The notes under the pieces: generated by a model
Seen by the model: the letters and a program-made list of their open reading frames with translations, nothing else
Database searches by the model: none
Told to the model about the DNA's origin: nothing
Shown here: positions 12,623 through 47,216 of the stretch, piece by piece
Layout: every line of letters begins with the position of its first letter
Position numbering within the stretch: position 1 is the first letter of the stretch
Position numbers and translations under genes: made by a program
Assembly: GCA_001787405.1 (NCBI GenBank)
Contig: MFWV01000011.1
Coordinates: forward strand, 48,857 to 112,856
Direction: 5' to 3'
DNA: 64,000 nucleotides
Source of the DNA: Candidatus Pacebacteria bacterium RIFOXYA1_FULL_38_18
GTDB taxonomy: Bacteria; Patescibacteriota; Microgenomatia; UBA1400; PJMF01

Positions 12623-13243
12623 ATGACCCGATCCCAACTCTCGCCTCAATTATTAGCTCGCCGGGTTGTATTAGTTAATGAACAAGATGAAGAAATTGGC
12701 TCGGCTAGCTTAATTGAAGCTCATCAGAAAAAAGGATTGTTGCATCGTGCTTCTTCTGTGTTTTTATTTCGTAAAAAAAATGGCAAATTAGAGTTTCTCA
12801 TCCAACAGAGAAGTCCACAGAAAGTTCTAGCAGCCAATCTATGGGCCAATACTGTTTGTGGCAATGTTACTCCAAAGGAGGATTGTAAACATTGCATTAC
12901 TCGTAGACTTAGAGAAGAATTGGGGATTGAAAAATCAGATCTGACTAAATTAGTAAAATATCGCTATCAAGTTGATTGCGGTGGTGGTTTTGCCGAAAAC
13001 GAAATAGATCAAATTTTTGTGGGTTGGTATGATGGCTCAATTAATCCCGATACTAGCGAGGTTATTCAAGCTAAATGGGTTGATTGGCAATCATTTTTGG
13101 CTTTTATTCAAAAGGGAACTATACCAACTGATAAAAATGAAAAACTAATTTTTCAACAAGATAATTTTGCTCCCTGGATAAAATTGATGTTTAATGAACC
13201 TCAAGTTTTGGAATCATTGGAAAAATTTATTAAACAATCATGA
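12623..13243 (+). CDS. idi: isopentenyl-diphosphate delta-isomerase type 1 (Nudix family)
   Basis: 206 aa. LLHRASSVFLF, WANTVCGNV (catalytic Cys) and ENEIDQIF (catalytic Glu) align with E. coli Idi. Confidence 0.8.
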   Translation: MTRSQLSPQLLARRVVLVNEQDEEIGSASLIEAHQKKGLLHRASSVFLFRKKNGKLEFLIQQRSPQKVLAANLWANTVCGNVTPKEDCKHCITRRLREELGIEKSDLTKLVKYRYQVDCGGGFAENEIDQIFVGWYDGSINPDTSEVIQAKWVDWQSFLAFIQKGTIPTDKNEKLIFQQDNFAPWIKLMFNEPQVLESLEKFIKQS

Positions 13244-13938
13244 CAACCCCCCAACACGTAGCGATTATTATGGATGGCAATCGTCGTTGGGCACGCCAAC
13301 AAGGTCTGCAGGCCTCACTGGGCCATAAACAAATGGTGGAAGAGGGAATTGAGCGGATAGTAAGAGGGGCGAAAAAGTTGGGAATTAAGTATCTTACTCT
13401 TTGGGCTTTTAGTACGGAAAATTGGCAGAGGGATAAAAAAGAAGTGCAGTTTTTGATGAAACTTTTTCGCCAAATGTTTACCAAAGAGGTTAAAAAACTT
13501 CACGAAAAAGGAGTAAGAATTCGCACCATAGGTGATCTGAGTCGTTTTGATCAAGATATTCAGGATAGTATTGCCAAATGGGTTGAAGAAACAGCAAAAA
13601 ATAAGGATATCACCGTGATTTTTGCTCTTAATTATGGTGGCCAGGATGAAATCTTGCGAGCAATAAATAAGATTACTCAAGAAATAAAATCAAATAATTC
13701 TCAACCAAAAAAACTTAGTCAGTCAAGATTTGAACAATACTTGGATACGGCTGATTTGCCCAAAGTGGATTTAATCATTCGTCCAGGAGGAGAACAGCGT
13801 TTATCAGGTTTTCTTGCCTGGCAAAGTGCTTATGCGGAATTGTATTTCACGGATGTATTAATGCCGGATTTTGATGAAAATGAATTAACAAAAGCCGTGA
13901 AAGAATTTCAACGTCGTCAACGAAGATTTGGCAAATAA
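13240..13938 (+). CDS. uppS: undecaprenyl diphosphate synthase
   Basis: 232 aa. HVAIIMDGNRRWA and the cis-prenyltransferase fold. It overlaps the idi stop by 4 nt. Confidence 0.9.
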   Translation: MTTPQHVAIIMDGNRRWARQQGLQASLGHKQMVEEGIERIVRGAKKLGIKYLTLWAFSTENWQRDKKEVQFLMKLFRQMFTKEVKKLHEKGVRIRTIGDLSRFDQDIQDSIAKWVEETAKNKDITVIFALNYGGQDEILRAINKITQEIKSNNSQPKKLSQSRFEQYLDTADLPKVDLIIRPGGEQRLSGFLAWQSAYAELYFTDVLMPDFDENELTKAVKEFQRRQRRFGK

Positions 13939-13947
13939 TAAAAATAC

Positions 13948-14388
13948 TTAAAGTGGCCACTGAGTCTCGGGCCCAGGGATTCTGAATTTTAAAATAGTTT
14001 TTACCCCTGTAAAATCACTGATTAGATTGAGAATAATAAAGGCAGACAGTGCTACCACTAGGCCGATTACTGCAGAAGTGATTGATTTTTGGGCTTTTTC
14101 TACGTTTTGACTATTTCCACCAGATAGCAAAATATTAAAGGCAGCCACAACGACCATGATAAAGGAAACTATTCCTACTAAAGTTAAAAAAGTAGCCAAG
14201 ACATTGGCCAATAAACATTGAAAACCTTGGATAGTGGCTACCGAGCTATCATTTTCACTCACACACACTCCACTCCAAGAACTGGTTTGGGCTAGAGCAG
14301 GGGAGGCGCTAGCTAAAAAACCAAGCAAGGCAGAGCCGATGACCGCTATTTTCCGATTAATATTTTTCATATAAGCGTAATTATACAT
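13948..14388 (-). CDS. small secreted two-TM protein, VirB2/TrbC-like (T4SS pilin-like), paralog 1 of 7
   Basis: The signal peptide is better from Met7 (MKNINRKIAVIGSALLGFLASASPALA). Two hydrophobic helices flank a GGNSQNVEKAQKSITSAVIGL loop motif. It shares the family motif with the next six genes. Confidence 0.6.
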   Translation of the reverse strand: MYNYAYMKNINRKIAVIGSALLGFLASASPALAQTSSWSGVCVSENDSSVATIQGFQCLLANVLATFLTLVGIVSFIMVVVAAFNILLSGGNSQNVEKAQKSITSAVIGLVVALSAFIILNLISDFTGVKTILKFRIPGPETQWPL

Positions 14389-14445
14389 ACAAAATCGAGA
14401 TAAAAAAATCTATTCAAAGCTGGACGGTTTGGTTTTTTTAAAAAA

Positions 14446-14480
14446 TAAAAAAAAGAAGCCCTCGCACGTTAGTGAGAAGG
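14446..14480 (-). terminator. rho-independent terminator downstream of pilin-like paralog 2
   Basis: On the minus strand AGAAGCC...GGCTTCT forms a 7-bp stem followed by CTTCTTTTTTTTATTTTTT. Confidence 0.5.
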
Positions 14481-14503
14481 CTTCTGAATTTCAATTAATT
14501 TAA

Positions 14504-14902
14504 TTAACCATTGATGGTTCTAGTTTCCAGCACTTCATTTAGGTCTTTGAAGCCCAAGAAGTTCAAGGCTAAAGTAAGAATGGCATAAGAAGCAGCCACT
14601 ACGATCAAGCCGATTATCGCTGAGGTAATTTTGTTTCTAGCACTTTCGGTTTTACCTTTATCACCTCCGCTAGTAATCCATTCAATACCTCCCCAAATGA
14701 GATAGAGAAAGACCATTAAGGCTGCTAACACCATAACAAAACTCAAAATACCATTTAACAACTTACCAAAATCAGTGGCGAAACCCTGACCTGGGGTAAC
14801 TTGAGTTTTGGCGATATCCACAGCTCCAGCTGGGACTACGGCAGCAACCAAGCTGGCAATGGACACACTGGTTGACAGAGTGAATTTTTGAAATTTATTC
14901 AT
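14504..14902 (-). CDS. VirB2/TrbC-like pilin-like protein, paralog 2 of 7
   Basis: Sec signal peptide (…AAVVPAGA|VD), TM1, loop WITSGGDKGKTESARNKITSAIIGLIVV, TM2. Confidence 0.65.
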   Translation of the reverse strand: MNKFQKFTLSTSVSIASLVAAVVPAGAVDIAKTQVTPGQGFATDFGKLLNGILSFVMVLAALMVFLYLIWGGIEWITSGGDKGKTESARNKITSAIIGLIVVAASYAILTLALNFLGFKDLNEVLETRTING

Positions 14903-15025
14903 GATTCTCCTTTTATTAATTTCTAAATTTTTTTACCCTAAAACAAGATTGCTGATCATTATACTCATATCTTGCCATAAACGTCAAAACATTATCAGTT
15001 CGCTTTTTCCAGTCAATCTCGAATT

Positions 15026-15367
15026 TTAACAAGTTCCTCCAAAATCAAGTATGCAGATATTTAAAAATTTTTGCAACAAAATAAAGAGTGCGGTGGTAGA
15101 AGCCAGTACGATTAAACCAATTAACGCTTGAGTAATTTTATTTCTAGAACTTTCTAGTTTGCTTTTATCACCCTCACTAGTGATCCATCCCAAGGCGCCT
15201 AGCAAAAGATAAATAAAAGCGACCAACACTGCCACCACCATGATTGCGCTCATTAGCGTACTCATAAAACCACCAAAACCACCTTTGACACTAGAACCAG
15301 GCAGATTGGCTTGATCAGCAGCACCGCTTAGATTGATGGTAGTCTGTTGGGCGATTAAATTATTCAT
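15026..15367 (-). CDS. VirB2/TrbC-like pilin-like protein, paralog 3 of 7 (no obvious signal peptide)
   Basis: WITSEGDKSKLESSRNKITQALIGLIVL lies between two TM helices. The N-terminus MNNLIAQQ resembles paralog 7. Confidence 0.6.
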   Translation of the reverse strand: MNNLIAQQTTINLSGAADQANLPGSSVKGGFGGFMSTLMSAIMVVAVLVAFIYLLLGALGWITSEGDKSKLESSRNKITQALIGLIVLASTTALFILLQKFLNICILDFGGTC

Positions 15368-15372
15368 GTTTT

Positions 15373-15792
15373 TTAATTCAAAGCACTAGGAATAGTTATT
15401 TTCAAAATATTAAAACTTTCACCAAAAAATAGGTCGCTAATGAAACTTAAAATGACGAAAGAACCAACTAAAATAATCAAACCAATAATTGCTTGCATGA
15501 TGCGATTTCTGGCTTTTTCCAGTTTACCCTTTTCACCCTCACTAGTAATCCACTCAAAAGCTCCCAAGATAAAGAATACCAAGACCGTGATTGCTCCAAT
15601 GCCAATAATGGCGCTCCAAAGAGTTACGAAATAATTGGCAAAAGTAACTCCGCTAGCTGCTCCTTCAGCGTCATTACCCAGCGCTCCCTCGACTACTGGA
15701 TTGGTTAATTGAGCAAAAGCGGGAGAAGCTGTTGCCAGTGTAAAAACACTCAGGGTTGATAGAGCGCTGCCGATTTTGATTATTTTTTTCAT
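15373..15792 (-). CDS. VirB2/TrbC-like pilin-like protein, paralog 4 of 7
   Basis: Signal peptide …ASPAFA|Q. Loop motif EWITSEGEKGKLEKARNRIMQAIIGLIIL between two TMs. Confidence 0.65.
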   Translation of the reverse strand: MKKIIKIGSALSTLSVFTLATASPAFAQLTNPVVEGALGNDAEGAASGVTFANYFVTLWSAIIGIGAITVLVFFILGAFEWITSEGEKGKLEKARNRIMQAIIGLIILVGSFVILSFISDLFFGESFNILKITIPSALN

Positions 15793-16208
15793 AATCCTCC
15801 TGAAACTGGGGCAATAATATTTTGAATTTGTTCGGCAGGATTCAAGAAATCAAAGCCCAATAGACTGCCCAACAACCCAATAATGCTGTATGAAGCGATG
15901 ATGATAATCATACCCAGTGCTCCATGTACCATTTGATTCCTAGCTTTTTCCAGTTTGCCCTTATCTCCCTCACTAGAAATCCATTGAAAGGCACCAATGA
16001 CAAACTGCACCACAAAAAACAACGCACCCAAAGCAGTTAAAAAGCCAATTATATTGGAAACAAAAAGTTCTAGATTGGTTAATGCTCCAGTACCAACATC
16101 TGATCCTTCACTATAAGCATCAGTGGGGGGAGTAAAACCACCTAGAGGAACATCTTCAGTAGCACCTTTACCTGCTTGAGTGATTAATGAAAAAAAACTA
16201 AATAGCAT
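15789..16208 (-). CDS. VirB2/TrbC-like pilin-like protein, paralog 5 of 7
   Basis: Loop motif QWISSEGDKGKLEKARNQMVHGALGMII between two TMs. Overlaps paralog 4 by 4 nt. Confidence 0.6.
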   Translation of the reverse strand: MLFSFFSLITQAGKGATEDVPLGGFTPPTDAYSEGSDVGTGALTNLELFVSNIIGFLTALGALFFVVQFVIGAFQWISSEGDKGKLEKARNQMVHGALGMIIIIASYSIIGLLGSLLGFDFLNPAEQIQNIIAPVSGGL

Positions 16209-16220
16209 AATTTGGACTCC

Positions 16221-16712
16221 TTACGAAACTCCTCGCAATGTAGGATTGATAATGTAAGTAGCATCACCAAAGAAAATCAGACCGATGATTGCAGCAATGG
16301 TATAGGCCCCCACAATCAAGCCAAGACCAACCAGACTATTAGTCATCATGGAGGAAGCTTGAGTAACACCCTTGCTGTCTCCAGAAGAAATAATGTATTG
16401 CCAGCCAGCCAAGATAAAATTGATCAGCACCCAAACTCCAGCAGCTACGGTGGCTAGACGAATGAGATTGGAAATAAAAGTAATAAGACCAATTCCGCCC
16501 TCACCTTCGGCGTTATAACGATCTACACCCGCTGGGGCTTCGATAGTACCAAAAATACTAGTTTCATCACTAGTTTTAGGATTAGTGGGAGTAATTTGAC
16601 CTACGGCAATTACTGAATTGGTAAAGCCACCCAGAAAAATTCCCAGGACAATTGTGAGAGAAAGAAAAAACTTGGTTAGTTGGTTGGTCAAACTAGATTT
16701 CATTTTCATCAT
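16221..16712 (-). CDS. VirB2/TrbC-like pilin-like protein, paralog 6 of 7 (longer N-region)
   Basis: Signal peptide, then a roughly 70-aa hydrophilic region, then TM1, loop QYIISSGDSKGVTQASSMMTNSLVGLGLIV and TM2. Confidence 0.55.
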   Translation of the reverse strand: MMKMKSSLTNQLTKFFLSLTIVLGIFLGGFTNSVIAVGQITPTNPKTSDETSIFGTIEAPAGVDRYNAEGEGGIGLITFISNLIRLATVAAGVWVLINFILAGWQYIISSGDSKGVTQASSMMTNSLVGLGLIVGAYTIAAIIGLIFFGDATYIINPTLRGVS

Positions 16713-21699: not shown

Positions 21700-23493
21700 A
21701 TGACTTTTTTTACTTTTGCCCAGCATCTCAAAAAAATCGAGGCAGTTAGCGCTCGATTGGAAATTACTAGATTATTATCTCAATTATTTTCTGAGTTAAA
21801 AATCAAAGAAATTCCGCCGGCAATTTATTTATCACTTGGTCGATTGGTCCCGCAATATCAATCATTGGAATTTCAACTTTCAACCAAAATGATTCTTCGT
21901 GCATTAACCAAACATTTGGCTCACCACCCCGATATTTATGGAGCCAATGGATCAATGAGTAATTTGTTTAATGAAACAGATGAAAGTTTATATGAAGAGC
22001 GAGTAAATAAACTTTATAAACAAACTGGTGATATTGGTGAGACTACTGAACAGTTGTTAAGCTTGGGTGATAAAGAAGGCCTGAAGCCTGATTTACTAGA
22101 AGTTTATGAGCAATTGGTACAGATTGCCAAAGAGGGCGGAACCGGCTCTCAAGAGCGAAAAATAGCAGGACTAATTGATCTTTTTGAAAAACTAGATTCC
22201 AATTCTCTGCGTTTTATCGTGCGTATCATAGTGGGTAAATTGCGTTTGGGTTTTTCTACTATGACCGTGCTTGATGCTCTGTCATGGACTAAACACAATG
22301 ATAAGTCTGAGAGTGGCAAGCTTGAGGAATTATTTCAAAAAAAAGCTGACCTAGGATTATTAGCTCAAGTTTATTTGGATCCCCAACATAATTTAAAAGC
22401 AGTGCAAAAACTTTATCAAATTTCTGAGGGTATTCCAGTCATGCCGGCTTTATGTCAGCGACTCAATTCTGCCGAAGAAATTATTGCCAAAATGCCAAAA
22501 GTAATTGTTGAACCAAAATATGATGGTTTGCGCATTCAAATTCATTTGGGTAAAGACAAAAATAGTAAAAAATGGGTGCGTTCATTCACTCGTAATCTGG
22601 AAGAAACCTCTCAGATGTTTCCGGAATTAAATCAAGCTTTGACAAAACTGGATTGTGTTAGCTGTATTTTGGATGGGGAAGTGGTGGGAGTAGATAAAAA
22701 AACTGGCAAGATTGTTGCTTTTCAAGAAACATCTACGCGTCGTCGTAAACACGGCATAGCAGCAAAGGCTGAGGAATTGCCAGTGCGTTTTTATTTATTT
22801 GATGTATTAGAAAAAAATGGACAATCATTAATTGACACACCGCTTAGTGAGCGCAAAACAATCTTAAAACAAATCGTGAAAGCCGATACTGATGTTTTTA
22901 CCACTGCGCCTTTTATAGTCACTAGCGATCCCGAAGAATTACATGATTATCATACGAAACAATTGGCATTGGGATTGGAAGGAGCAGTAATCAAAAAACA
23001 TGACTCTGTTTATAAAAGTGGTCGCAAGGGCTGGCGTTGGGTGAAGATTAAAGAAGAAGAAGGCACTAGTGGCAAACTTAGTGACACACTGGACTGTATC
23101 GTGATGGGTTATTACGGTGGTCGGGGTAAGCGTGCGGCTTTTGGAGTGGGCGCTTTTTTAGTTGGTTTATTGGGTGATGATGGCAAAATTTATACACTGG
23201 CCAAGATTGGTACTGGACTCACTGATGAACAATTTAAAGAACTAAAAAAGCGCCTCAACAAACACGAGGTAAAGGTCAAACCCAAAGTTTATAAAGTACA
23301 TAAGAACCTAATTCCAGATGGCTGGATTGAACCATCTTTTGTGGTGGAAATTGCTGCTGATGAACTGACTCGTTCGCCAGTTCACTCGGCTGGTAAAGCC
23401 CTGCGCTTTCCTCGCTTAGTCAAGTTTAGAGACGACAAAACTTGGCAAGAAGCAACCACTCTCAAAGAAATGGAAACCATTAAAATTGGTTGA
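21700..23493 (+). CDS. lig: ATP-dependent DNA ligase (Lig I / archaeal-eukaryotic type)
   Basis: 597 aa. Motif I KYDGLRIQIH (adenylation lysine). N-terminal DNA-binding domain, then adenylation and OB domains. Confidence 0.85.
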   Translation: MTFFTFAQHLKKIEAVSARLEITRLLSQLFSELKIKEIPPAIYLSLGRLVPQYQSLEFQLSTKMILRALTKHLAHHPDIYGANGSMSNLFNETDESLYEERVNKLYKQTGDIGETTEQLLSLGDKEGLKPDLLEVYEQLVQIAKEGGTGSQERKIAGLIDLFEKLDSNSLRFIVRIIVGKLRLGFSTMTVLDALSWTKHNDKSESGKLEELFQKKADLGLLAQVYLDPQHNLKAVQKLYQISEGIPVMPALCQRLNSAEEIIAKMPKVIVEPKYDGLRIQIHLGKDKNSKKWVRSFTRNLEETSQMFPELNQALTKLDCVSCILDGEVVGVDKKTGKIVAFQETSTRRRKHGIAAKAEELPVRFYLFDVLEKNGQSLIDTPLSERKTILKQIVKADTDVFTTAPFIVTSDPEELHDYHTKQLALGLEGAVIKKHDSVYKSGRKGWRWVKIKEEEGTSGKLSDTLDCIVMGYYGGRGKRAAFGVGAFLVGLLGDDGKIYTLAKIGTGLTDEQFKELKKRLNKHEVKVKPKVYKVHKNLIPDGWIEPSFVVEIAADELTRSPVHSAGKALRFPRLVKFRDDKTWQEATTLKEMETIKIG

Positions 23494-29793: not shown

Positions 29794-32133
29794 TTGATGT
29801 TTATAGAATCTGATAGTTTTGTCACCAGTGTTTCTATGTTTTTCATCAATCTCTTTTTATGGATAGGAATTATTGGTTTAGTACTTATTTTGGCTTATTT
29901 ATTTTTACAATGGTTTAAACATCGCAAACGCGAAGTCTATTCTCTGGACTTTGTAACACTACTAGTTCGTCTTCCCAAAGACAATGAAGTAAAGATTGAT
30001 GCTGCCGAACAAATGTTTGCCGGACTTTATTCTCTCAAAAATGATGGAATTTTCTCTTTCTTAAAACCAGAAGAAATCATTAGTTTTGAGATAGTGGGCC
30101 TCAAAGAAGAAATTGCTTTTTATGTTAGTTGTCCCAGAAAAATTAGAGATTTAGTAGAAAAACAAATTCATGGAGCATATCCCTTTGCTGATATCAAAGA
30201 AACTGATGAGGTAAATATTTTTAGCGAAAAAGGGCGAGTAGCTTTTTCTTCATTGAAACTTAAAGAAGGTCACTCTTTACCTTTAAAGACTTACAAAGAT
30301 TTACCAACAGACGGCTTGTCATTGATTACTTCTGCTTTTTCCAAAATGGGAGAAGGAGATGGTGCGATCTTGCAAATCTTGATCAGACCGGAAGGCAATC
30401 GTTGGCAGAAAAAAGGCAGAAACTACATCAAAAACGAAAAAAAACGAGAAGCTGATCCTCAAAAAGCAACTTATGGCCATGATCCAAAAGAAATGGAAGC
30501 AGTAACAACCAAAGTTGAAAAACCAGGCTTCAGAACCTCAATCAGAGTAGTGGTATCTTCAGCTCATGAATCAATAGCCCACTCACATTTAAATAACATT
30601 GACGGTGCTTTTTCTCAATTTGCTTCTACCTATAACCAACTCACTCATTCTCGTTTTTACATCAAACATCTTTTTATGATTGATTTTATTTATCGTTATA
30701 TGCCGTTATTTAATATAGGTACTTCAATTTTGAATACCGAAGAGTTAGCCACTGTTTTTCACTTTCCCAATAAAACTGTGGAGACTCATCACATCAAGTG
30801 GCTACAAGCCAAAAACGCACCAGCCCCGCATCAAATTCCCAATGAGGGACTCTTTTTGGGCAAATCTCTTTATCGTGGAGAAATACGAGATGTGCACATG
30901 AAGCTGAAAGATCGTCAACGCCACATGTACATCATTGGAAAAACTGGTACCGGTAAATCTGAGTTTTTGAAAGAAATGATCATGCAGGACATTATTAAAG
31001 GAGAAGGAGTTTGTGCCATTGATCCGCATGGTGAGTTTGTAGAAGATATTTTGCAATTAATGCCACCAGAACGGGCAGAAGATGTCATCTATTTCAACCC
31101 ATCAGATCTAGATCGGCCGATGGGTTTGAATATGATGGAAGCAGATTTTGAGGAACAAAAGCATTTTGTGGTGAGTTCCATTATTGGTTTAATGTACAAA
31201 TTATATGATCCGCATCGCACTGGTATCATCGGTCCGCGATTTGAGCATGCCATCAGAAACGCTATGTTGACAATCATGTCTAGAGAAGGTTCTACTTTTA
31301 TTGAGCTAGTTCGGGCCCTAACAGATCAAAAATTTGTTGAAGAGCTCTTGCCTTATGTTAAAGATCCGGTAGTAAAACGATATTGGACTGATCAGATTGC
31401 TCAAACCAGTGATTTCCATAAGTCAGAAGTGCTTGACTACATTGTGTCCAAATTTGGCCGTTTTGTGACCAATAAAACGATGAGAAACATCATTGGCCAG
31501 CCCAAGAGCTCTTTTAATTTCCGCAAAGCAATGGACGAGAAAAAAATTATTTTATGCAACCTTTCCAAAGGCATCTTGGGTGAGGAAGATGCCAAGTTTC
31601 TTGGTTTGATTCTAGTGCCAAAAGTCCTAACTGCTGCTATGAGCAGACAAGATGTGCCGATGGATCAGCGAACTGATTTTTTTCTCTATGTGGACGAGTT
31701 TCAAAACTATGCTACCGAGGATTTTGCCACCATTCTTTCAGAGGCTAGAAAATACAAACTCAATTTGATTGTAGCCAATCAGTTTATTGGTCAGATTGAT
31801 GAGGAAGTCAAAAACGCGGTGTTTGGTAATGTTGGCACCATTATTTCTTTCCGCATTGGCGTAACAGATGCCAATTTCCTACAACATGAATTTACTCCAG
31901 TTTTTAACGAAACAGACTTGGTTAATGTAGAAAAGTATCACGTTTACATTAAAACCATTGTCAACAATGAGCCAGTATCAGCTTTCAGCATGTCATTGGA
32001 AAAAGACATGGACGCCATCAAAGCCCAAATGAATCCCAAGTTGGCAGAAATGATCAAACAGCTTTCCCGCTTAAAATATGGTAAAGAGAGATCCGTAGTT
32101 GAGGCAGAAATTTCCATTAGAGCAAGATTATAA
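29794..32133 (+). CDS. membrane-anchored P-loop ATPase of the FtsK/HerA/VirB4/VirD4 (TraG-like) superfamily
   Basis: 779 aa. N-terminal TM helices. Walker A IIGKTGTGKSEF. DPHGE motif. Walker B FFLYVDEFQNY. ARKYKLNLIVANQ arginine-finger/Q region. Confidence 0.6.
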   Translation: MMFIESDSFVTSVSMFFINLFLWIGIIGLVLILAYLFLQWFKHRKREVYSLDFVTLLVRLPKDNEVKIDAAEQMFAGLYSLKNDGIFSFLKPEEIISFEIVGLKEEIAFYVSCPRKIRDLVEKQIHGAYPFADIKETDEVNIFSEKGRVAFSSLKLKEGHSLPLKTYKDLPTDGLSLITSAFSKMGEGDGAILQILIRPEGNRWQKKGRNYIKNEKKREADPQKATYGHDPKEMEAVTTKVEKPGFRTSIRVVVSSAHESIAHSHLNNIDGAFSQFASTYNQLTHSRFYIKHLFMIDFIYRYMPLFNIGTSILNTEELATVFHFPNKTVETHHIKWLQAKNAPAPHQIPNEGLFLGKSLYRGEIRDVHMKLKDRQRHMYIIGKTGTGKSEFLKEMIMQDIIKGEGVCAIDPHGEFVEDILQLMPPERAEDVIYFNPSDLDRPMGLNMMEADFEEQKHFVVSSIIGLMYKLYDPHRTGIIGPRFEHAIRNAMLTIMSREGSTFIELVRALTDQKFVEELLPYVKDPVVKRYWTDQIAQTSDFHKSEVLDYIVSKFGRFVTNKTMRNIIGQPKSSFNFRKAMDEKKIILCNLSKGILGEEDAKFLGLILVPKVLTAAMSRQDVPMDQRTDFFLYVDEFQNYATEDFATILSEARKYKLNLIVANQFIGQIDEEVKNAVFGNVGTIISFRIGVTDANFLQHEFTPVFNETDLVNVEKYHVYIKTIVNNEPVSAFSMSLEKDMDAIKAQMNPKLAEMIKQLSRLKYGKERSVVEAEISIRARL

Positions 32134-32317
32134 GTTTATTTATTTGGCAAACCTCAGTAATCTTTGCATGATTTTGATAGATTTTGGAGACTATCTATAT
32201 GTGTGTTATTGCGAATGTGTTGTTGTAAATATGTTATTGCAAAAAATTTATAAATATTAACTTTTTTGACTTGAAACAAACACATAAACGCACTCAAAAC
32301 AAATTATTTTTTCAATC

Positions 32318-33184
32318 ATGAGCATAAACTCAACTTCTCTGGGAAAAATTATTCTTACGGGGGAGCATAGTGTAGTTTATGGTTACCCCGCTTTGGCCAT
32401 ACCTACCAAATTAGCCACTCATGTAAAGGTTTGGAAAAAACGAGAGGGAAGATCTACCAAACAGTCACTTCCTCTCAAAGTTGTTCAAGTTATTGACGTC
32501 ATAGGTGAGCATTTTCCAGAACTTGATTTAGGTTTATCTTTTCAGATTTTTTCTTCATTGCCACAAAATTCAGGCCTCGGTTCCTCTGCAGCGCTGGCTC
32601 ATGCTCTTGTAAAAGCTATTGCTGGATATTATCACCGCCAATTAACAAAAGAACAGCTTTTTCAGATTGTTCAAAAATGTGAAAAAATTTTTCATGGAAA
32701 ACCCAGTGGAATTGATGCTGCTACTGTAGTTTATGAAACCTGTCTGCGTTTTATAAGGTCTAAAGATCAAGTTACCATTAAAAAACTTGATTGTCTGAAA
32801 ACGATTCCACCCTTTCTTTTACTTGACTCTGGAAAGGCCACCGAAACAACAAAAGCAATGATAAAAATTGCCAGCGGCAATCCAGCAAAGAAAAGCATTT
32901 TAAAACAAATAGGCGCAATTACTCAAAAAATCGAGAATCTTTTACAAGATGAAAAATTTTCTCCAGAACTTATTACAGAGAATGAAAGATTGCTGGAGAA
33001 ATTGGGCGTGGTTGGTAAAAAAGCCACTCTCATCATTCGTGCTATCGAAGAATTTGGAGGTTTTGCAAAAATTACTGGAGCAGGGGGAGTGGCGAGTGGT
33101 TCTGGCGTCATTATTGCTTTTCACAAAGACATCCAGAAATTAAAGAATTATTGTAAAATCAAACGATTTCACTCATTCAATTAA
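32318..33184 (+). CDS. mvk: GHMP kinase, mevalonate kinase-like
   Basis: 288 aa. N-terminal GKIILTGEHSVVYGYPALAIP (MK signature). GHMP motif PQNSGLGSSAA. Glycine-rich GAGGVASGSG. Confidence 0.75.
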   Translation: MSINSTSLGKIILTGEHSVVYGYPALAIPTKLATHVKVWKKREGRSTKQSLPLKVVQVIDVIGEHFPELDLGLSFQIFSSLPQNSGLGSSAALAHALVKAIAGYYHRQLTKEQLFQIVQKCEKIFHGKPSGIDAATVVYETCLRFIRSKDQVTIKKLDCLKTIPPFLLLDSGKATETTKAMIKIASGNPAKKSILKQIGAITQKIENLLQDEKFSPELITENERLLEKLGVVGKKATLIIRAIEEFGGFAKITGAGGVASGSGVIIAFHKDIQKLKNYCKIKRFHSFN

Positions 33185-33222
33185 ATAGAAGCTAAAATTA
33201 AAATGGCAAAAGAAAATAATTT

Positions 33223-34206
33223 ATGAATAAGATTCAAGCCTCTGCTCCAGGAAAATTAATGTTGTTTGGTGAGCATGCGGTGGTGTACGGACATCCGTGT
33301 ATTGTTACTGCCGTTGATCAGCGCATTTTTGTAGAAGTTCAAAAAAAAGATAATCATTCTTTTTCTGTTGTAGCGCCCGAAGTAGGAGTGGACAAATATA
33401 CCAAAAGTTTGATTGAAATTGGAAAGGCAACTATTCCCAGATCTGTTGTTTTCCTAGAGAAATTATATAAAAAATTTATTGAAAAATATTCTGTTGGTGG
33501 CGGAATTCAAGTCACGACTAGAAGTGAGTTTTCTGCAAAATTTGGTTTTGGCTCAAGCAGTGCCGTTACAGTGGCTTTTGCAAAAGCTTTGACAAAATTG
33601 TTCGCGATTGAGTTATCAAAGAAAGAATTATTTGACCTTTGCTATCAAACCGTTATTGATGTGCAAGGAGTTGGATCAGGGTTTGATTTGGCTTCAGCAA
33701 TATGGGGTGGCACTATCTATTATATTAAACCTGCAAAAATAGTAGAGCAACTTTCTGAAAAAGAAATTCCCATCAGCGTGGCATACACCGGCATTAAAGC
33801 CGATACTACAAGTCTGGTAAAAATGGTTGCGGAAGAAAAGGCCAATAATGCAGACAAGATCAATGAGATTTTTGAGCAAATAACCATTATTACTAAATTG
33901 GCAAAAACGGCAATATTGGCAAGTGATTGGCCACAGGTGGGGAACCTTATGACTCAAAATCAATTGTTGTTGGCAGAATTGGGAGTGAGTAGCACAGAGC
34001 TGGATTCGCTCATCTCAGTCTCATTGTTATCAGGAGCATATGGAGCAAAATTATCTGGTGCTGGTGGAGGTGATTGTATGATTGCTCTAGCCGATCAGAA
34101 AATCAAGAAAAAAATGGAGATAGAGCTTGAAAATGTTGGCGGTCAGGTGCTACAGGTGCATACCGGCGCTGATGCAGTAAGATTGGAAACAGAAAGCAAA
34201 AAATGA
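33223..34206 (+). CDS. second GHMP kinase (phosphomevalonate kinase or MK paralog; assignment unresolved)
   Basis: 327 aa. SAPGKLMLFGEHAVVYGHP (MK-type GEHAVV, not ERG8-type GEYAV). FGFGSSSA. KLSGAGGGDCMIAL. Confidence 0.7.
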   Translation: MNKIQASAPGKLMLFGEHAVVYGHPCIVTAVDQRIFVEVQKKDNHSFSVVAPEVGVDKYTKSLIEIGKATIPRSVVFLEKLYKKFIEKYSVGGGIQVTTRSEFSAKFGFGSSSAVTVAFAKALTKLFAIELSKKELFDLCYQTVIDVQGVGSGFDLASAIWGGTIYYIKPAKIVEQLSEKEIPISVAYTGIKADTTSLVKMVAEEKANNADKINEIFEQITIITKLAKTAILASDWPQVGNLMTQNQLLLAELGVSSTELDSLISVSLLSGAYGAKLSGAGGGDCMIALADQKIKKKMEIELENVGGQVLQVHTGADAVRLETESKK

Positions 34207-35183
34207 AGAAACAAACAGTACTAGCTCATTCTGATGTAGCGCTAATTAAATACTGGGGTAAAAAAGACGTAGCAACTCAACTTCCAGAAAATAGCAGTGT
34301 CTCAGTTGCTCTAAATGGATTGGATACCATCACAACTGTAGAGTTTGACGATAAATTATTGGCAGACGACATTGTTATCCAAGGCAGTAGAGAAGCCAAA
34401 GAAGTAGAGCGAGTAGTTTTACATTTGGAAAGAATTAGAAACTTAGCCCAAATTAAAACATACGCAAAAGTTGTATCAAAAAACACCTTTCCCAAAGCAA
34501 CTGGGCTTTCTAGTTCTGGTTCTGGGTTTGCTGCTCTGACTTTGGCTGCAATTGGTGCTCTTGAACTGAAACTTTCCCCCAAAGAAATAAGTATTCTTGC
34601 TAGAAAAGCCTCTGGTACAGCTTGTCGTTGTGTGATGGGTGGTTTTATTAAGTGGCTCGCTGGAGATACATCAAGTTCTTCTTATTCAAAAACAATTTTT
34701 GATGAAAATTATTGGGATATTAGAGATGTAATTGCCATTGTTGATTTTGATAAGAAAAAAGTATCTTCTTCTGAAGGTCATTTATCAGCGCACTCAAGTC
34801 CGTTTTATCAAGTTCGCTTACAGCGAATTCCCAGTAAAATTAAAAAAATTAAACAATATATAAACGATAAAGATTTTTCATCCTTTGGCAAACTAATCGA
34901 ATCAGAAGCTTTGGAATTTCACTCAATTCTTCTGACAAGTAAACCCCCACTCATCGCTTGGTATCCTGGCACTATTGCGGTGATGAATCTTGTACAAGAA
35001 ATGCGAAAACAGGGTATTGAGGCATATTTCACCATCAATACGGGCTTTAATGTTCATATATTAACACTTCCTCAATTTGTAGATGAAGTTCAGAAGAGAG
35101 TTTCAAGTTTGTCATTTGTTCGTGATGTTATGAAAGCAACCGTGGGGGGTTTTCCCCAAAAATTGGATACCCACTTATTTTAA
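34203..35183 (+). CDS. mvaD: diphosphomevalonate decarboxylase family (MVD, or phosphomevalonate decarboxylase)
   Basis: 326 aa. ALIKYWGKKD, TGLSSSGSGFAAL and the GHMP fold. Overlaps the upstream gene by 4 nt. Confidence 0.85.
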   Translation: MKKQTVLAHSDVALIKYWGKKDVATQLPENSSVSVALNGLDTITTVEFDDKLLADDIVIQGSREAKEVERVVLHLERIRNLAQIKTYAKVVSKNTFPKATGLSSSGSGFAALTLAAIGALELKLSPKEISILARKASGTACRCVMGGFIKWLAGDTSSSSYSKTIFDENYWDIRDVIAIVDFDKKKVSSSEGHLSAHSSPFYQVRLQRIPSKIKKIKQYINDKDFSSFGKLIESEALEFHSILLTSKPPLIAWYPGTIAVMNLVQEMRKQGIEAYFTINTGFNVHILTLPQFVDEVQKRVSSLSFVRDVMKATVGGFPQKLDTHLF

Positions 35184-35268
35184 AAATGAATATTTTGGTT
35201 GCGAAAAACTAAAAAAACTTGATTTCAAGAACATAAAAAACTATTGCGAAAACTTATTTTGGATAACT

Positions 35269-35580
35269 TTACCGTGCTTCGTAACTATCTACCACCTGTT
35301 TGCAGTAAAGATATTGACCGTAATCAATAGCCTTTTGCTGAATACTGGGGCTACTCTCATCTACTTGAATACTGGTTCCTAGAACATTTTTTGCTTGAGT
35401 GCCAATTTCTTGGGCGCGAGAAGACATAATGGCAAACTGCTGACTGATGTTGCCCTGAAGAGCATCGATTTCTATGGGAAGACTTGGGTTATTGGCTAGG
35501 GAATTATTTTTAAAGAAATAAATATAGCCAGCAACCAGGAGGCCGATAATAGCCAGCGTGATATAAATTTTTCTTTTCAT
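35269..35580 (-). CDS. hypothetical small membrane-anchored protein
   Basis: Start taken at internal Met (MKRKIYITLAIIGLLVAGYIYFF) to avoid overlap with the ABC permease gene. Coordinates are approximate to about 3 nt. Confidence 0.35.
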   Translation of the reverse strand: MKRKIYITLAIIGLLVAGYIYFFKNNSLANNPSLPIEIDALQGNISQQFAIMSSRAQEIGTQAKNVLGTSIQVDESSPSIQQKAIDYGQYLYCKQVVDSYEAR

Positions 35581-38620: not shown

Positions 38621-38649
38621 GAGCAGCTATTCTATCAAATTATTGCAAG

Positions 38650-38723
38650 TGCGTGCGCTAGGACTCGAACCTAGAACCACCAAGGTATAAGCTTGGTGCT
38701 CTGACCAATTGAGCTACGCACGC
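38650..38723 (-). tRNA. tRNA-Ile, anticodon UAU (reads AUA)
   Basis: Hand-folded cloverleaf. Acceptor GCGTGCG/CGCACGC. D-stem GCTC/GAGC. Anticodon stem CCAAG/CTTGG with loop CTTATAC. T-stem CTAGG/CCTAG with loop TTCGAGT. No encoded CCA. Confidence 0.75.
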
Positions 38724-44699: not shown

Positions 44700-45168
44700 T
44701 AAGCTTGCGATATAGATGTTTTAAAAAAGGATATTTATAAAGATTTTTTATTTTTAATAAATTTGGAAAATGGTGATTCAGTCGTGAATACCAAGTCAGA
44801 ATAAAAACAAAAAACCGCGAGCGATTATTTTCCAAAAAGATAGTATGCGAAGGATATATGATTTTTATAGCTTTTCCCATGAGTTTTTTAATATCAACCT
44901 GGTTATCATAATCTAATTTATTATCGCCCTTGGTAATAACATATTTTTTTTTAATAGCCATTAAGCGATGAAGAATTATTTGATTGTTTTTTTTAAAAGC
45001 TACAATATCGCCAACCGTATATTCTTGAGAATAATTAAGTTTTAAAACAACTTTTGCACCATGTTTAATTAAGGGTTCCATGCTATAACCCTTGCTAGTG
45101 GTTTGTATAATAAGCGAATGTTTATTAGTAATGAATTGAGTAATTAATGAAACATTTTTCATTGTCAT
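44689..45168 (-). CDS. S26-family signal-peptidase-like serine protease (Ser/His SipW/ER-type), no obvious TM
   Basis: GYSMEP (nucleophile Ser). ILHRL (His replaces the Lys of the KR box). KGDNKLDYDNQ (GDNxxxSxDSR-like). Start ambiguous; the ORF track gives 45234. Confidence 0.5.
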   Translation of the reverse strand: MTMKNVSLITQFITNKHSLIIQTTSKGYSMEPLIKHGAKVVLKLNYSQEYTVGDIVAFKKNNQIILHRLMAIKKKYVITKGDNKLDYDNQVDIKKLMGKAIKIIYPSHTIFLENNRSRFFVFILTWYSRLNHHFPNLLKIKNLYKYPFLKHLYRKLISS

Positions 45169-45185
45169 TGTGCATTGCTGATTTG

Positions 45186-46334
45186 ATGATTTTACTATAC
45201 ACGAACACAAATCAAGAGCATGATTTTTTGGCAAACAAATATGAGGACTATATAGTAACGGACAGTCAAGAAAAAACTGCAGTAGTATCTATTGCTTGCG
45301 GTTTTGAACATCGTGAGAAAGAAATTCCCAGCTTTGTTTTTAAAGAAAGTGTAATAGAGAGGTTTGGTTTATTTAGTGAGTTTTTCCGCAAAATATTAAT
45401 GGGAGTATTAAATACTCATGATGGAGCTTTATTGCATGCCAGTTCTATTGTTTATAAAAATCAGGGCTTTATTTTTATTGGTCATGAAGGAGCAGGCAAA
45501 ACAACTATTCGCAAATTACTAAATAACTACGTTTCTTTGGGCGATGATACAGCTATTATACGAATTAGAGGGGAAAAGACTTATCTATATGGTTCTCCAC
45601 TTTATCAACGAACTAAGCGTTCTTATCCGAATAAACGAGTTTTGATCTGTGGTATTTTTTCTTTAAAACAAGCAAAATATGCTCTAATTAATGATCTTGA
45701 TCTCAATCAGCAAGTGAAAGCGCTGTCGTCAAATGTTTTTTTATCTGGCTTAAAAGAATTTAACAATGAAAATAGAAAATTAAGTTTGACATTATTTACT
45801 TTGGGACAGCAACAACTTGTTCATAATTTATCTTTTGCCAAAACATCCCCAGTATCAAAAGTACTAAAAATATTTGCTCAAAAACCCTGGCAAAAAAAAT
45901 CAATCAAGAACCTATTGGTTCAAGCCAGCACTGTCTTTGTTCAAGAACTCCAAGATCATGTTGTTTGGTCGAAGGGTGTTGCCGATCGCGACTTTTTAAC
46001 TCAATGTTTGATAATTAATGAACATAGTTGGATTTTTGAATTCGGTTCACAGCGAATTTTGAAAGTAATAGCAGATAAAATTATTGGAAATCAAGAAGAG
46101 GCTTATCATCATTCTCTTGTGTTTAAAAAAATTAAACAATTCAAAGAAATCAAGGTTTTGCCTACGATAGTTGTTGTTCGAAAAGAAAATAATTTTGTAA
46201 TTATTGATGGCAATCATCGGGCATTGGCTTGGTATTTGCATAATAAAAATAATTTAACTGGAGAAATTTTGGTGTTAGTAGGAGATTTAAAAAATAATTT
46301 TAAAGAAAATAGTAAAATTTTTGCTTATTTATAA
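45186..46334 (+). CDS. HPr-kinase-like P-loop kinase fused to a C-terminal ParB/Srx-like domain
   Basis: GFIFIGHEGAGKTTIRKLL...LGDD fits the HprK C-domain pattern GxxGxGKS/T...hhDD. C-terminal VIIDGNHRALAWYL is ParB-like. Start ambiguous; the ORF track gives 45147. Confidence 0.5.
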   Translation: MILLYTNTNQEHDFLANKYEDYIVTDSQEKTAVVSIACGFEHREKEIPSFVFKESVIERFGLFSEFFRKILMGVLNTHDGALLHASSIVYKNQGFIFIGHEGAGKTTIRKLLNNYVSLGDDTAIIRIRGEKTYLYGSPLYQRTKRSYPNKRVLICGIFSLKQAKYALINDLDLNQQVKALSSNVFLSGLKEFNNENRKLSLTLFTLGQQQLVHNLSFAKTSPVSKVLKIFAQKPWQKKSIKNLLVQASTVFVQELQDHVVWSKGVADRDFLTQCLIINEHSWIFEFGSQRILKVIADKIIGNQEEAYHHSLVFKKIKQFKEIKVLPTIVVVRKENNFVIIDGNHRALAWYLHNKNNLTGEILVLVGDLKNNFKENSKIFAYL

Positions 46335-46369: not shown

Positions 46370-46915
46370 AATTATTTTCAAAAACTACCGAACAACGTCG
46401 ATTGTTGGGAGTTTGGGCACATCCAGATGACGAATCACTCAATATAGAAGAAATTTTGGCTCTAGCAAACAAAGCTAAAATAAATACGCAAATAATTTGT
46501 CTTATGGAGAAATGGGCTTATCTCAAAATAGTGCCTTAGGGACTCGAGGGCGAGATGGGAAATCTGGCAAGAAAGCGATCGGTCGTGGAAGCTTTATTTT
46601 AGCGTTCTGGAACAGGACATAAAACGTCTTTATAAACATTCCAGAAAACTAACGATTTGGAAAAATATGCTAAAAGCAGATTTTCAAATAAGTATTACCA
46701 AAACAACTGATCAAAAAATAACGGCCTGTTTAGCTCACGTCAGCCAGTTGTCAGTTCTCAACAAACCAATCCCATTAAAAATAATTTTTAAAATGTTTGA
46801 TAATGAGTATTTACATCTAGTAACTGCACAAAACAAATATAATTTTCAATTTGTGAATTTTTTCACTCAAAGGTATAATTATCGTGTCAAAAACAAAACC
46901 GAAGGCTTTTCATAA
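46370..46915 (+). pseudogene. decayed LmbE/PIG-L-family deacetylase gene (no start codon, frameshift)
   Basis: Hand translation of 46378.. gives EQRRLLGVWAHPDDESLNIEEILALANKAKINTQIICLMEKW, with the PIG-L AHPDDE motif, ending in a stop. The reading frame of ORF 46667..46915 continues it after a frame change. Confidence 0.4.
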
Positions 46916-46931
46916 TAAAAAGGAATATTTT

Positions 46932-47216
46932 ATGGCTAAAAAATTTGACGATAATACTATGATAAAAAGAATGCAGGGCATTGTTTATAAAGAAGTTGAA
47001 GGGGTGTTTTATATTTTGAACTATCAAACAGTAACATTGCACACACTCAATGAAACAGCTAGCTTTGTCTGGAAAGAATTGGCCAAACCCAAAACTATTA
47101 AACAATTAACTGAAACGATCGTTGATAATTTTTCAACAACGAAAACTCAAGCAAAACAAGATCTTGAAAAATTCATTATCAAGTATAAAAAACTTGGCTT
47201 TCTTGAACTGATATAG
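46932..47216 (+). CDS. PqqD-family protein (RiPP recognition element-type peptide chaperone)
   Basis: 94 aa from MAKKFDDN with RBS AAGGAA 8 nt upstream. LNETASFVWKEL, LTETIVDNF and AKQDLEKFIIKYKKLGFLEL match the PqqD/RRE consensus. Confidence 0.65.
   Translation: MAKKFDDNTMIKRMQGIVYKEVEGVFYILNYQTVTLHTLNETASFVWKELAKPKTIKQLTETIVDNFSTTKTQAKQDLEKFIIKYKKLGFLELI

Follow-up and report, generated by a model that had tools for sequence, protein, structure and literature searches.

The mevalonate genes of the Candidate Phyla Radiation (CPR), including those of the Microgenomates, have been described by Hoshino & Gaucher 2018 (PMC6107057). According to that study they are syntenic with a cis-prenyltransferase gene, the CPR sequences form basal branches of the bacterial clades, and homologues of isopentenyl phosphate kinase (IPK) are present in some CPR genomes, some Microgenomates included. 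Two further systems are close to the one studied here: the operon of Gram-positive bacteria, encoding mevalonate kinase (MK), diphosphomevalonate decarboxylase (MDD or DMD) and a phosphomevalonate kinase (PMK) of the GHMP type (TIGR01220), and the route of Chloroflexi and haloarchaea via phosphomevalonate decarboxylase (PMD) and IPK (Dellas 2013). We analyzed a cluster of three genes, here termed K1, K2 and D, in a stretch of 64,000 nucleotides from the genome of Candidatus Pacebacteria bacterium RIFOXYA1_FULL_38_18 (contig MFWV01000011.1; this whole stretch is called the window), a host belonging to the Microgenomates within the CPR. The cluster represents the same system as the gene set of Hoshino and Gaucher. 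With a probability of about 65% we read it as encoding all of the lower mevalonate pathway, with the steps in the classical order MK, PMK, DMD. The second kinase carries features of both MK and PMK, and the decarboxylase homologue has an Asn in place of the catalytic Asp.

The classical order is favoured because three ATP-dependent steps lead from mevalonate to isopentenyl diphosphate (IPP), three enzymes are present, and Lys20 of D indicates a diphosphate substrate. K1 would convert mevalonate to mevalonate 5-phosphate and K2 would convert mevalonate 5-phosphate to mevalonate 5-diphosphate. By ATP-dependent 3-phosphorylation, elimination and decarboxylation D would then form IPP, which would be isomerised by a homologue of isopentenyl diphosphate isomerase (IDI) and built into undecaprenyl diphosphate by the cis-prenyltransferase UppS. 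The genes and the codons of D discussed below are located as follows:

32318..33184, + strand: K1, bacterial-type mevalonate kinase of 288 amino acids, assigned from TIGR00549, the residue set and the tree
33223..34206, + strand: K2, deep-branching PMK-like GHMP kinase with an MK-type GEH, 327 amino acids, assigned from profiles, motifs and the tree
34203..35183, + strand: D, homologue of the ATP-dependent decarboxylases of the MVD family, 326 amino acids, assigned from TIGR01240, structures and residues
34260..34262, + strand: codon AAA for Lys20 of D, at the site of N20 in Anaerolinea thermophila PMD (the "conserved lysine of DMD")
34509-34511, + strand: codon for P-loop Ser103 of D, which co-varies with Asn279
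34779..34781, + strand: codon CAT for His193 of D, at the site of H194 in the same PMD (the "conserved histidine of PMD"), occupied by Met in canonical DMDs
35037..35039, + strand: codon AAT for Asn279 of D, in place of the catalytic Asp according to the alignment
12623..13243, + strand: IDI, divergent type-1 homologue (Nudix fold), assigned from NF002995 and solved matches
13240..13938, + strand: UppS, cis-prenyltransferase, assigned from TIGR00055 and Pfam Prenyltransf

An initial annotation of the window had reported three consecutive co-directional genes of the GHMP fold at 32318-35183, a GEH-type motif I in both kinases with GEYAV in neither, and an IDI-UppS pair 19 kb upstream. All of this was borne out. 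Motif I is GKIILTGEHSVVYG in K1 and GKLMLFGEHAVVYG in K2, inspection of the motifs found no GEYAV in either kinase, and profile matches together with an overlap of 4 bp confirm the IDI-UppS pair, located about 19 kb upstream of K1-K2-D. A gap of 38 bp separates K1 and K2, and D begins within K2, the two genes having 4 bp (ATGA) in common. Identical proteins recur on 15-16 other contigs, which measure up to 579 kb, the exact D protein on 16. Scanning positions 31900-35500 for transcription signals was uninformative (6 promoter-like sites versus 9.5 in shuffled sequence; no terminator on the + strand).

Both kinases are named "mevalonate kinase" at NCBI. For K1 the score on TIGR00549 is a marginal pass (165.7 bits versus a cut-off of 163.05), and one of its relatives, P0029, falls below the cut-off with 161; on the PMK models K1 reaches 36 bits (TIGR01220) and 30.8 bits (Arch_PMK). 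Its best solved matches are exclusively mevalonate kinases, the alignment with S. aureus MK covering residues 7-280 of 288. Motif II of K1, LPQNSGLGSSAA, is of the MK type, and the catalytic-Asp motif HGKPSGID is identical in S. aureus MK (HMNPSGLD in S. pneumoniae). The full catalytic set of an MK is present, comprising Lys10, His17, P-loop Ser89, Glu122 and Asp133 (for the roles of the motif I Lys and His, the P-loop Ser and the catalytic Asp see PMC6283576). When comparing 26 MKs, solved or defined by their gene context, with 12 PMKs we obtained 11 discriminating alignment columns, at which K1 shows the MK state in nine cases and the PMK state in none. A Glu eleven residues ahead of the catalytic Asp (Asp-11) is found in all 12 K1 sequences compared and in 99/99 sequences of the wider K1 family that have a findable motif. 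In human and rat MK this Glu helps to bind Mg-ATP. MKs and K1 are further characterized by the lack of an Asp in motif III. Bacterial MKs scored 143 and 131 on a K1 profile versus 112 and 97 on a K2 profile. In a neighbour-joining tree of 65 kinases (unrooted, 100 bootstraps) K1 is nested inside the MK clan, among context-defined and solved MKs. Judged by its sequence, K1 is an ordinary mevalonate kinase of the bacterial type.

K2 falls on the other side of this tree: the split between K2 plus PMKs and all MKs plus K1 was recovered in 94 of 100 bootstraps, with K2 monophyletic in 97/100 and the PMKs in 99/100. At the position of the Glu that is invariant in the MKs (26/26) K2 has Val144; across the families, Asp-11 is occupied by Val or Ile in all of 117 K2 sequences, whereas each of 111 PMKs of Firmicutes has His there. 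Motif III of K2 is GAGGGDC including Asp284, a sequence shared by 115 of 120 K2 proteins, and all 120 PMKs have G(A/S)GGGDC. The Asp of motif III may substitute for the role of the MK Glu in PMKs and in K2. In addition, the catalytic-Asp motif GSGFD fits the GSxxD of PMKs, and Gly151 corresponds to a Gly in 12/12 PMKs and to Pro, Ala or Ser in MKs. Lys101 of S. pneumoniae PMK was tried as a signature of K2 and rejected, since the K2 family mostly has Ser, Gln or Leu there, though the K2 of the window has Lys.

Profile scores were calibrated with enzymes of known type. M. mazei MK as control reached 287 bits on TIGR00549, 66 on TIGR01220 and 52 on Arch_PMK, and true PMKs (S. pneumoniae, Listeria) reached 51-94, 189-327 and 40-68, respectively. 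K2 lies above the genuine MK of M. mazei on both TIGR01220 and Arch_PMK, while remaining below the cut-offs of Arch_PMK (90.9 versus 500), of the ERG8 model (35.7 versus 377) and of NF003036 (216 versus 403 bits). On a profile built from 120 Firmicutes PMKs the K2 proteins scored 115-151 bits, context-defined MKs 21-89 and distant PMKs from proteobacteria and Caldithrix 105-166. By overall similarity of sequence K2 is intermediate between MK and PMK. A fold search with the AlphaFold model of K2 (pLDDT 92.6; TM 0.83 to M. mazei MK, 0.88 to Listeria PMK 3k17) did not discriminate, as MKs and the PMK alike match at TM 0.8-0.88. We therefore describe K2 as a deep-branching, PMK-like kinase and not as a member of TIGR01220, with phosphomevalonate kinase activity as its predicted function; on these sequence grounds the database label "mevalonate kinase" appears to be wrong for K2. 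The initial annotation had left the second kinase open between a divergent PMK and a role in a pathway of alternative order, and had proposed a kinase phylogeny to decide. With K2 placed outside the MK clan on the PMK side, the Glu missing, GAGGGDC present and PMK-model scores above those of a genuine MK, the divergent PMK is the better of these options. K2 would then represent a slowly evolving lineage between archaeal-type MKs and bacterial GHMP-type PMKs. Across the Patescibacteria, K2-type proteins bear the name "mevalonate kinase" since they pass TIGR00549, and these genomes therefore seem to be devoid of a PMK. In the data gathered here a signature of two sites separates the two functions: Glu at Asp-11 with GAGGxx for MK, and a non-acidic residue with GAGGGDC for PMK.

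D contains the sequence ALIKYWGKKD and is recognized by TIGR01240 (250.6 bits versus a cut-off of 171.35) as well as by the Pfam domains MVD-like_N (167.5 bits) and MDD_C (61.6 bits); Tyr17, Ser105, Arg142, Lys185 and Ser189 are conserved. The initial annotation had regarded D as an unmistakable MVD-family decarboxylase. The motif and the models uphold the family membership, but the replacement of the catalytic Asp by Asn279 had been overlooked. On the PMD model NF040704 D stays below the cut-off (190.4 versus 475), a model that may span just part of the PMD diversity. A route of the Thermoplasma type was rejected on the profile scores of D, which on the models for mevalonate-3-kinase and bisphosphomevalonate decarboxylase reached 46 bits (cut-off 440) and 49.9 bits (cut-off 560), respectively.

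Two positions have been connected with the choice between phosphate and diphosphate substrates. In A. thermophila PMD the position of N20 is that of the conserved lysine of DMD and the position of H194 that of the conserved histidine of PMD (PMC11052028), and the structure 6n0z in the PDB shows, by its title and sequence, this enzyme with the exchanges N20K H194M. The conserved Lys of DMD (Lys21 in S. epidermidis) is among the residues surrounding the diphosphate of the substrate (Dellas Table 4). Inspection of these substrate-discriminating residues, as proposed in the initial annotation, revealed one of each type in D: Lys20 corresponds to the DMD state and His193 to the PMD state. For comparison we fetched 80 loci with relatives of D and searched them with our own profiles for K1, K2, PMK, IPK, IDI, UppS and the upper pathway; labels such as "PMK-context" rest on these profiles. 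Relatives of D located beside a PMK (n = 11) have Lys, Met and Asp in all 11 cases. Those beside an IPK (n = 14) have Asn or Ala at the Lys20 site and the catalytic Asp in 14/14, with His in 13 and Met in none. The D proteins of the CPR (n = 16) all have Lys or Arg at position 20, mostly His or Gln at the Met/His site, and Asp (7/16) or Asn (9/16) at the catalytic site. Lys20 indicates the diphosphate as the substrate of D, and we infer that D is a diphosphomevalonate decarboxylase with hybrid DMD/PMD specificity residues that does without the catalytic Asp.

The stretch around the catalytic site is FTINTGFNV in D, compared with FTMDAGPNV in S. aureus MDD and YTLDAGPNV in A. thermophila PMD; the solved MDD and PMD sequences in our alignment have the Asp. 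Asn279 takes the place of D283 of S. epidermidis, D282 of E. faecalis and D281 of S. solfataricus, and no acidic residue is present at 279 or at +4 (NTGFN). NTGFN is also found in the related loci L006 and L007, and N-T-G in 11 of 150 family representatives (50% identity), among them the closest relatives of D. The nine CPR loci with Asn come from bins labelled Pacebacteria, Levybacteria, Roizmanbacteria, Microgenomates and others, and fall into the subtypes NTGFN and NTGQD/NTGHD; Asp is present in 69/69 non-CPR loci. Because the motif recurs in relatives and across CPR loci, Asn279 is not an error. Asn strictly co-varies with Thr280 (for Ala) and with Ser103 in the P-loop (GLSSS versus GLASS), both being present in 9/9 sequences with Asn versus 0/76. 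Glu238 is largely specific to the Asn clade (8/9 Asn-type versus 1/7 CPR Asp-type sequences). The other catalytic residues of D are invariant within the Asn clade, and complete operons of relatives with an Asn-type D contain no other gene of the MVD family.

According to Aoki et al. (PMC9254496) every homologue that decarboxylates has the Asp, and mevalonate-3-kinase is the only one to lack it. The paper reports that S. solfataricus DMD becomes a 3-kinase when carrying D281T or D281V, and cites D281N as keeping decarboxylase activity. The Asp of E. faecalis MDD is close to one of two metal ions and 3.3 Å away from the 3-oxygen of the substrate, and a P-loop Ser contributes to a metal site (PMC7414129). 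The combination of Asn, Thr and Ser in D would point to a compensated remodelling of the site where the 3-OH of the substrate and the second metal ion are located, and not to a loss of function. D probably retains decarboxylase activity: no second gene of the MVD family accompanies it in complete operons, its other catalytic residues do not vary, the exact protein recurs on 16 contigs, and S. solfataricus D281N shows that Asn can be tolerated. In evolutionary terms D would be a PMD-like scaffold with an acquired DMD Lys, in which a sub-lineage exchanged Asp for Asn, Ala for Thr and the P-loop Ala for Ser. This is a natural, lineage-wide exchange of Asp for Asn at a residue of debated role, to which a function as general base, in orienting the 3-OH or in assisting the carbocation or leaving group has been ascribed. 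With its two co-varying changes the Asn variant provides a test case that complements the engineered D281N/T/V mutants.

The gene context was compared across the CPR. D is paired with a K2-type kinase in all 16 CPR loci, and K1 is present as well wherever the flank is long enough. Our IPK profile detected no IPK within 8 kb of D in these 16 loci; the same profile was positive beside D in 14 non-CPR loci from Chloroflexi, Thermoanaerobaculia and Gemmatimonadota (130-190 bits), and every non-CPR locus with IPK context has a single kinase. Fusions of D to a kinase occur naturally in the forms K1-D and K2-D and with a PMK-like domain behind D (P0373, P0374, P0476, P0499). We considered them as a clue to which kinase feeds D and rejected this, since all types occur.

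In L007 the pathway forms one block in the order IDI-HMGR-HMGS-AACT-DUF35-K1-K2-D-UppS, where HMGR, HMGS and AACT denote HMG-CoA reductase, HMG-CoA synthase and acetoacetyl-CoA thiolase. Blocks are also found in L008, L010, L015, L034 and L055, and UppS directly follows D in relatives. The initial annotation had proposed that the mevalonate pathway supplies isoprenoid precursors to undecaprenyl phosphate, and these blocks with IDI and UppS at their ends, as well as PMC6107057, support this view. It had also suggested a search for HMGS, HMGR, IPK and genes of the methylerythritol phosphate (MEP) pathway. In the window plus 10 kb on each side (84 kb) neither our own profiles nor precomputed Pfam matches revealed IPK, HMGR, HMGS or AACT, and no MEP genes were found in the same 84 kb; a second MVD-family gene or other candidate decarboxylase was found neither in the window nor in the complete operons of relatives. 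The blocks of two relatives extend over 8357-12699 in L006 and 4812-12671 in L007, and their neighbours are those of the IDI-UppS pair of the window, namely pilin genes, a sigma-70 factor, an AAA ATPase, Carb_kinase, Fic and a DNA ligase. In the lineage of the window, K1-K2-D appears to have left its place between IDI and UppS and to have moved 19 kb away, behind the gene of a DUF87 ATPase.

Within the blocks, a gene of about 100 amino acids lies between the thiolase and K1 (L007, 8799-9089; also L008, L010, L012, L015, L034 and L055) and scores 26-36 bits on our own profile. By analogy to the archaeal thiolase/HMGS complex it is tentatively labelled DUF35-like. Operons of the CPR type K1-K2-D were also seen in L009, L010, L033, L055 and L020, in bins labelled Gammaproteobacteria, Pseudomonadales or "archaeon"; these contigs are probably mis-binned or mislabelled.

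With regard to the two enzymes downstream of IPP, UppS scored 285 bits on TIGR00055 (cut-off 109.55) and 274.5 on Pfam Prenyltransf. IDI, a hypothetical protein at NCBI, passes NF002995 by a margin of 2.7 bits (129.7 versus 127) and stays below TIGR02150 (94.7 versus 105.8). Its best solved matches are type-1 IDIs, and Cys79 and Glu125/Glu127 (E-N-E) are aligned with their counterparts. Asn81, in VCGNV, stands where solved type-1 IDIs have the His of C-G/S-H. The His of the C-G-H motif is presumably a metal ligand in E. coli IDI.

A number of observations weigh against the classical order. The best solved match of D is the A. thermophila PMD 6n0x (249 bits, 36% identity; 194 bits for S. aureus MDD), and its AlphaFold model (pLDDT 96.4) reaches TM 0.94-0.95 to 6n0x/6n0y/6n0z and 0.92-0.93 to the MDDs of Staphylococcus. 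His193 is retained in D where 11/11 PMK-context enzymes have the Met of the S-R-x-G-M loop, and R205, K212, H285, D175, E235 and most clade-specific residues of D are shared with IPK-context enzymes. These shared residues probably reflect phylogenetic signal more than determinants of specificity and were not counted as votes. The D309N exchange abolishes the activity of P. torridus bisphosphomevalonate decarboxylase, as stated in PMC9254496. K2, for its part, passes TIGR00549 (203.6 bits versus 163.05) and fails TIGR01220 (109.5 versus 165.7), its best matches among solved sequences and in Foldseek are archaeal MKs, and besides the His18 of GEH, for which the 12 PMKs have Tyr (7), Trp (3) or Phe (2), it keeps four further MK-type states. 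As the neighbour-joining tree is unrooted, a sister relationship of K2 and PMK hinges on the position of the root. Finally, IPK homologues have been reported in some Microgenomates (PMC6107057), and our search covered 84 kb of the contig.

Part of these observations would be explained if the same three genes acted in a different order, with K1 forming mevalonate 5-phosphate, D acting as a PMD that yields isopentenyl phosphate, and K2 serving as a GHMP-fold IPK that replaces the IPK of the amino-acid-kinase fold. The closeness of D to A. thermophila PMD (TM 0.95), the PMD His and the other residues common to D and IPK-context enzymes fit such an order, as does the fact that K2 is not a canonical PMK, and a replacement kinase would be needed because no IPK lies near any CPR cluster. 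The initial annotation had considered an order in which decarboxylation precedes the second phosphorylation and D is a PMD; the nearest solved relative and the retained His speak for this, but with Lys20 and no IPK near the 16 CPR clusters it is the less likely order. Lys or Arg at position 20 is universal in the D proteins of the CPR and otherwise confined to PMK-paired enzymes in our sample. We know of no GHMP-fold isopentenyl phosphate kinase, which counts against K2 in this role. Moreover, K2 keeps the His by which MKs read the C3 hydroxyl and methyl of mevalonate (PMC6283576); this fits a mevalonate-type substrate, a weak inference. Taken together we consider this order unlikely. To a similar degree we doubt a transitional CPR pathway with two enzymes intermediate between the PMD/IPK and the classical routes, K2 as a hybrid of MK and PMK and D as a PMD scaffold with the DMD Lys and, in half of the lineages, without the catalytic Asp. 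Here D would act mainly on mevalonate 5-phosphate or be bifunctional, and K2 would phosphorylate isopentenyl phosphate and be the first GHMP-fold kinase to do so; or else an Asn-type D would need no carboxylate at the canonical site.

We give less credence to the idea that K1 and K2 are two MK isozymes, with D as a PMD and a conventional IPK elsewhere completing a route as in haloarchaea and Chloroflexi. Both kinases score above the cut-off of TIGR00549, archaeal MKs are the best matches of K2, and an IPK as reported for some Microgenomates might be encoded beyond the 84 kb inspected. On the other hand, K2 lacks the Glu that is invariant in 26/26 MKs and 12/12 K1 sequences, has the PMK-type GGGDC and is placed outside the MK clan, the lysine of DMD is present in D, and the two kinases are kept side by side in all CPR loci with adequate flanks, whereas non-CPR loci with IPK context have a single one. 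Quite improbable, too, is that D without its Asp is merely a 3-kinase like mevalonate-3-kinase or the D281T and D281V mutants, elimination and decarboxylation taking place elsewhere or spontaneously. The reported presence of the Asp in all homologues that decarboxylate, its lack in mevalonate-3-kinase, the inactivation of the P. torridus enzyme by D309N and the absence of an acidic residue at 279 or +4 of D would agree with this. It is opposed by S. solfataricus D281N, which still decarboxylates according to PMC9254496, by the lack of a second MVD-family gene or candidate decarboxylase in the window and in the complete operons of relatives, and by the scores of D on the mevalonate-3-kinase (46 versus 440) and bisphosphomevalonate decarboxylase (50 versus 560) models. 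Hardly credible is a decaying relic in a cell that scavenges isoprenoid precursors from its host. The detachment of K1-K2-D from IDI-UppS, upper-pathway genes not being found in the 84 kb inspected, and the substitutions of IDI and D at canonical catalytic or ligand positions could be read in this way; yet the three open reading frames are intact and translationally coupled, identical proteins occur on 15-16 contigs, the motifs are invariant among relatives at 35-62% identity, and the Asn variant tracks specific substitutions and not scattered damage. The classical order with K2 as PMK and D as DMD remains our preferred reading.

Further features were recorded in the window:

13948-16712, − strand: array of six or seven small T4SS_pilin-like genes
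21700-23493, + strand: ATP-dependent DNA ligase with DNA_ligase_A N, M and C domains
29794-32133, + strand: DUF87/VirB4-like ATPase directly upstream of K1
38649-38723, − strand: tRNA-Ile with anticodon TAT, predicted by ARAGORN
about 39500-64000: large cluster with glycosyltransferases, Wzy_C polymerase/ligase-like proteins, PMT_2, WecG and an ABC-2 exporter
45147-46334, + strand: ScmC-family protein
46884-47216, + strand: small PqqD-like protein

A TraC-like gene and a second DUF87 ATPase are located just upstream of dnaA, outside the window (L088, 6648-9883). Together with the pilin array and the ATPase ahead of K1 this suggests a type-IV-secretion-like or conjugation-like apparatus around the origin region. 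The glycosyltransferase cluster is a plausible consumer of the undecaprenyl phosphate derived from UppS. The ScmC-family and PqqD-like genes lie close to each other in an AT-rich stretch (GC 0.30) and may form a peptide-maturation pair. As to the tRNA-Ile, AUA codons are decoded in most bacteria by a tRNA with a modified CAU anticodon instead.

In comparison with the known systems, the cluster itself is already described and the link to undecaprenyl phosphate is the published view. The basic reading is unaltered by our analysis: an ordinary, previously described pathway supplying undecaprenyl phosphate. The main text of PMC6107057 mentions no kinase-by-kinase assignment, no Lys/His hybrid and no loss of the catalytic Asp. 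A literature search found no characterized mevalonate enzymes of the CPR and no natural Asn variants beyond Hoshino & Gaucher, and the assignment of the kinases, the two-site MK/PMK signature, the combined Lys and His state and the natural loss of the Asp appear to be unreported in the accessible literature. Both K2 and D have the appearance of intermediates preserved from the transitions that have been proposed from MK to PMK and from PMD to DMD, and as such bear on the origin of the classical pathway, in the stem of CPR and bacteria or by transfer.

Like the Gram-positive operon, the cluster encodes three GHMP-fold enzymes and no IPK. K1 resembles the MKs of S. aureus and S. pneumoniae, K2 has GAGGGDC, GSxxD and the missing Glu in common with Gram-positive PMKs, and D shares Lys20, Ser105, Arg142, Lys185 and Ser189 with Gram-positive MDD. 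The two systems differ in gene order (K1-K2-D here versus MK-D-PMK), in the GEH of K2 and its score below the PMK cut-off versus the GEY of Gram-positive PMK, and in the His and Asn of D where Gram-positive MDD has Met and Asp. In the PMD and IPK route of Chloroflexi and haloarchaea (Dellas 2013; 6n0x-6n0z) it is the decarboxylase that is nearest to D in sequence and in predicted fold, and D has the equivalent of its His194. The system studied here differs from this route in that position 20 of D is Lys instead of Asn, the first of the two changes engineered in N20K H194M, that a PMK-like second kinase is present, and that no IPK lies near any CPR cluster. Replacement of the catalytic Asp connects D with the D281N/T/V mutants of S. 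solfataricus and with the mevalonate-3-kinase of Thermoplasma. The latter belongs to a different subfamily, as reflected in the profile score of D (46 bits versus a cut-off of 440), and unlike the engineered mutants the Asn of D is natural, lineage-wide and accompanied by Thr280 and the P-loop Ser103.

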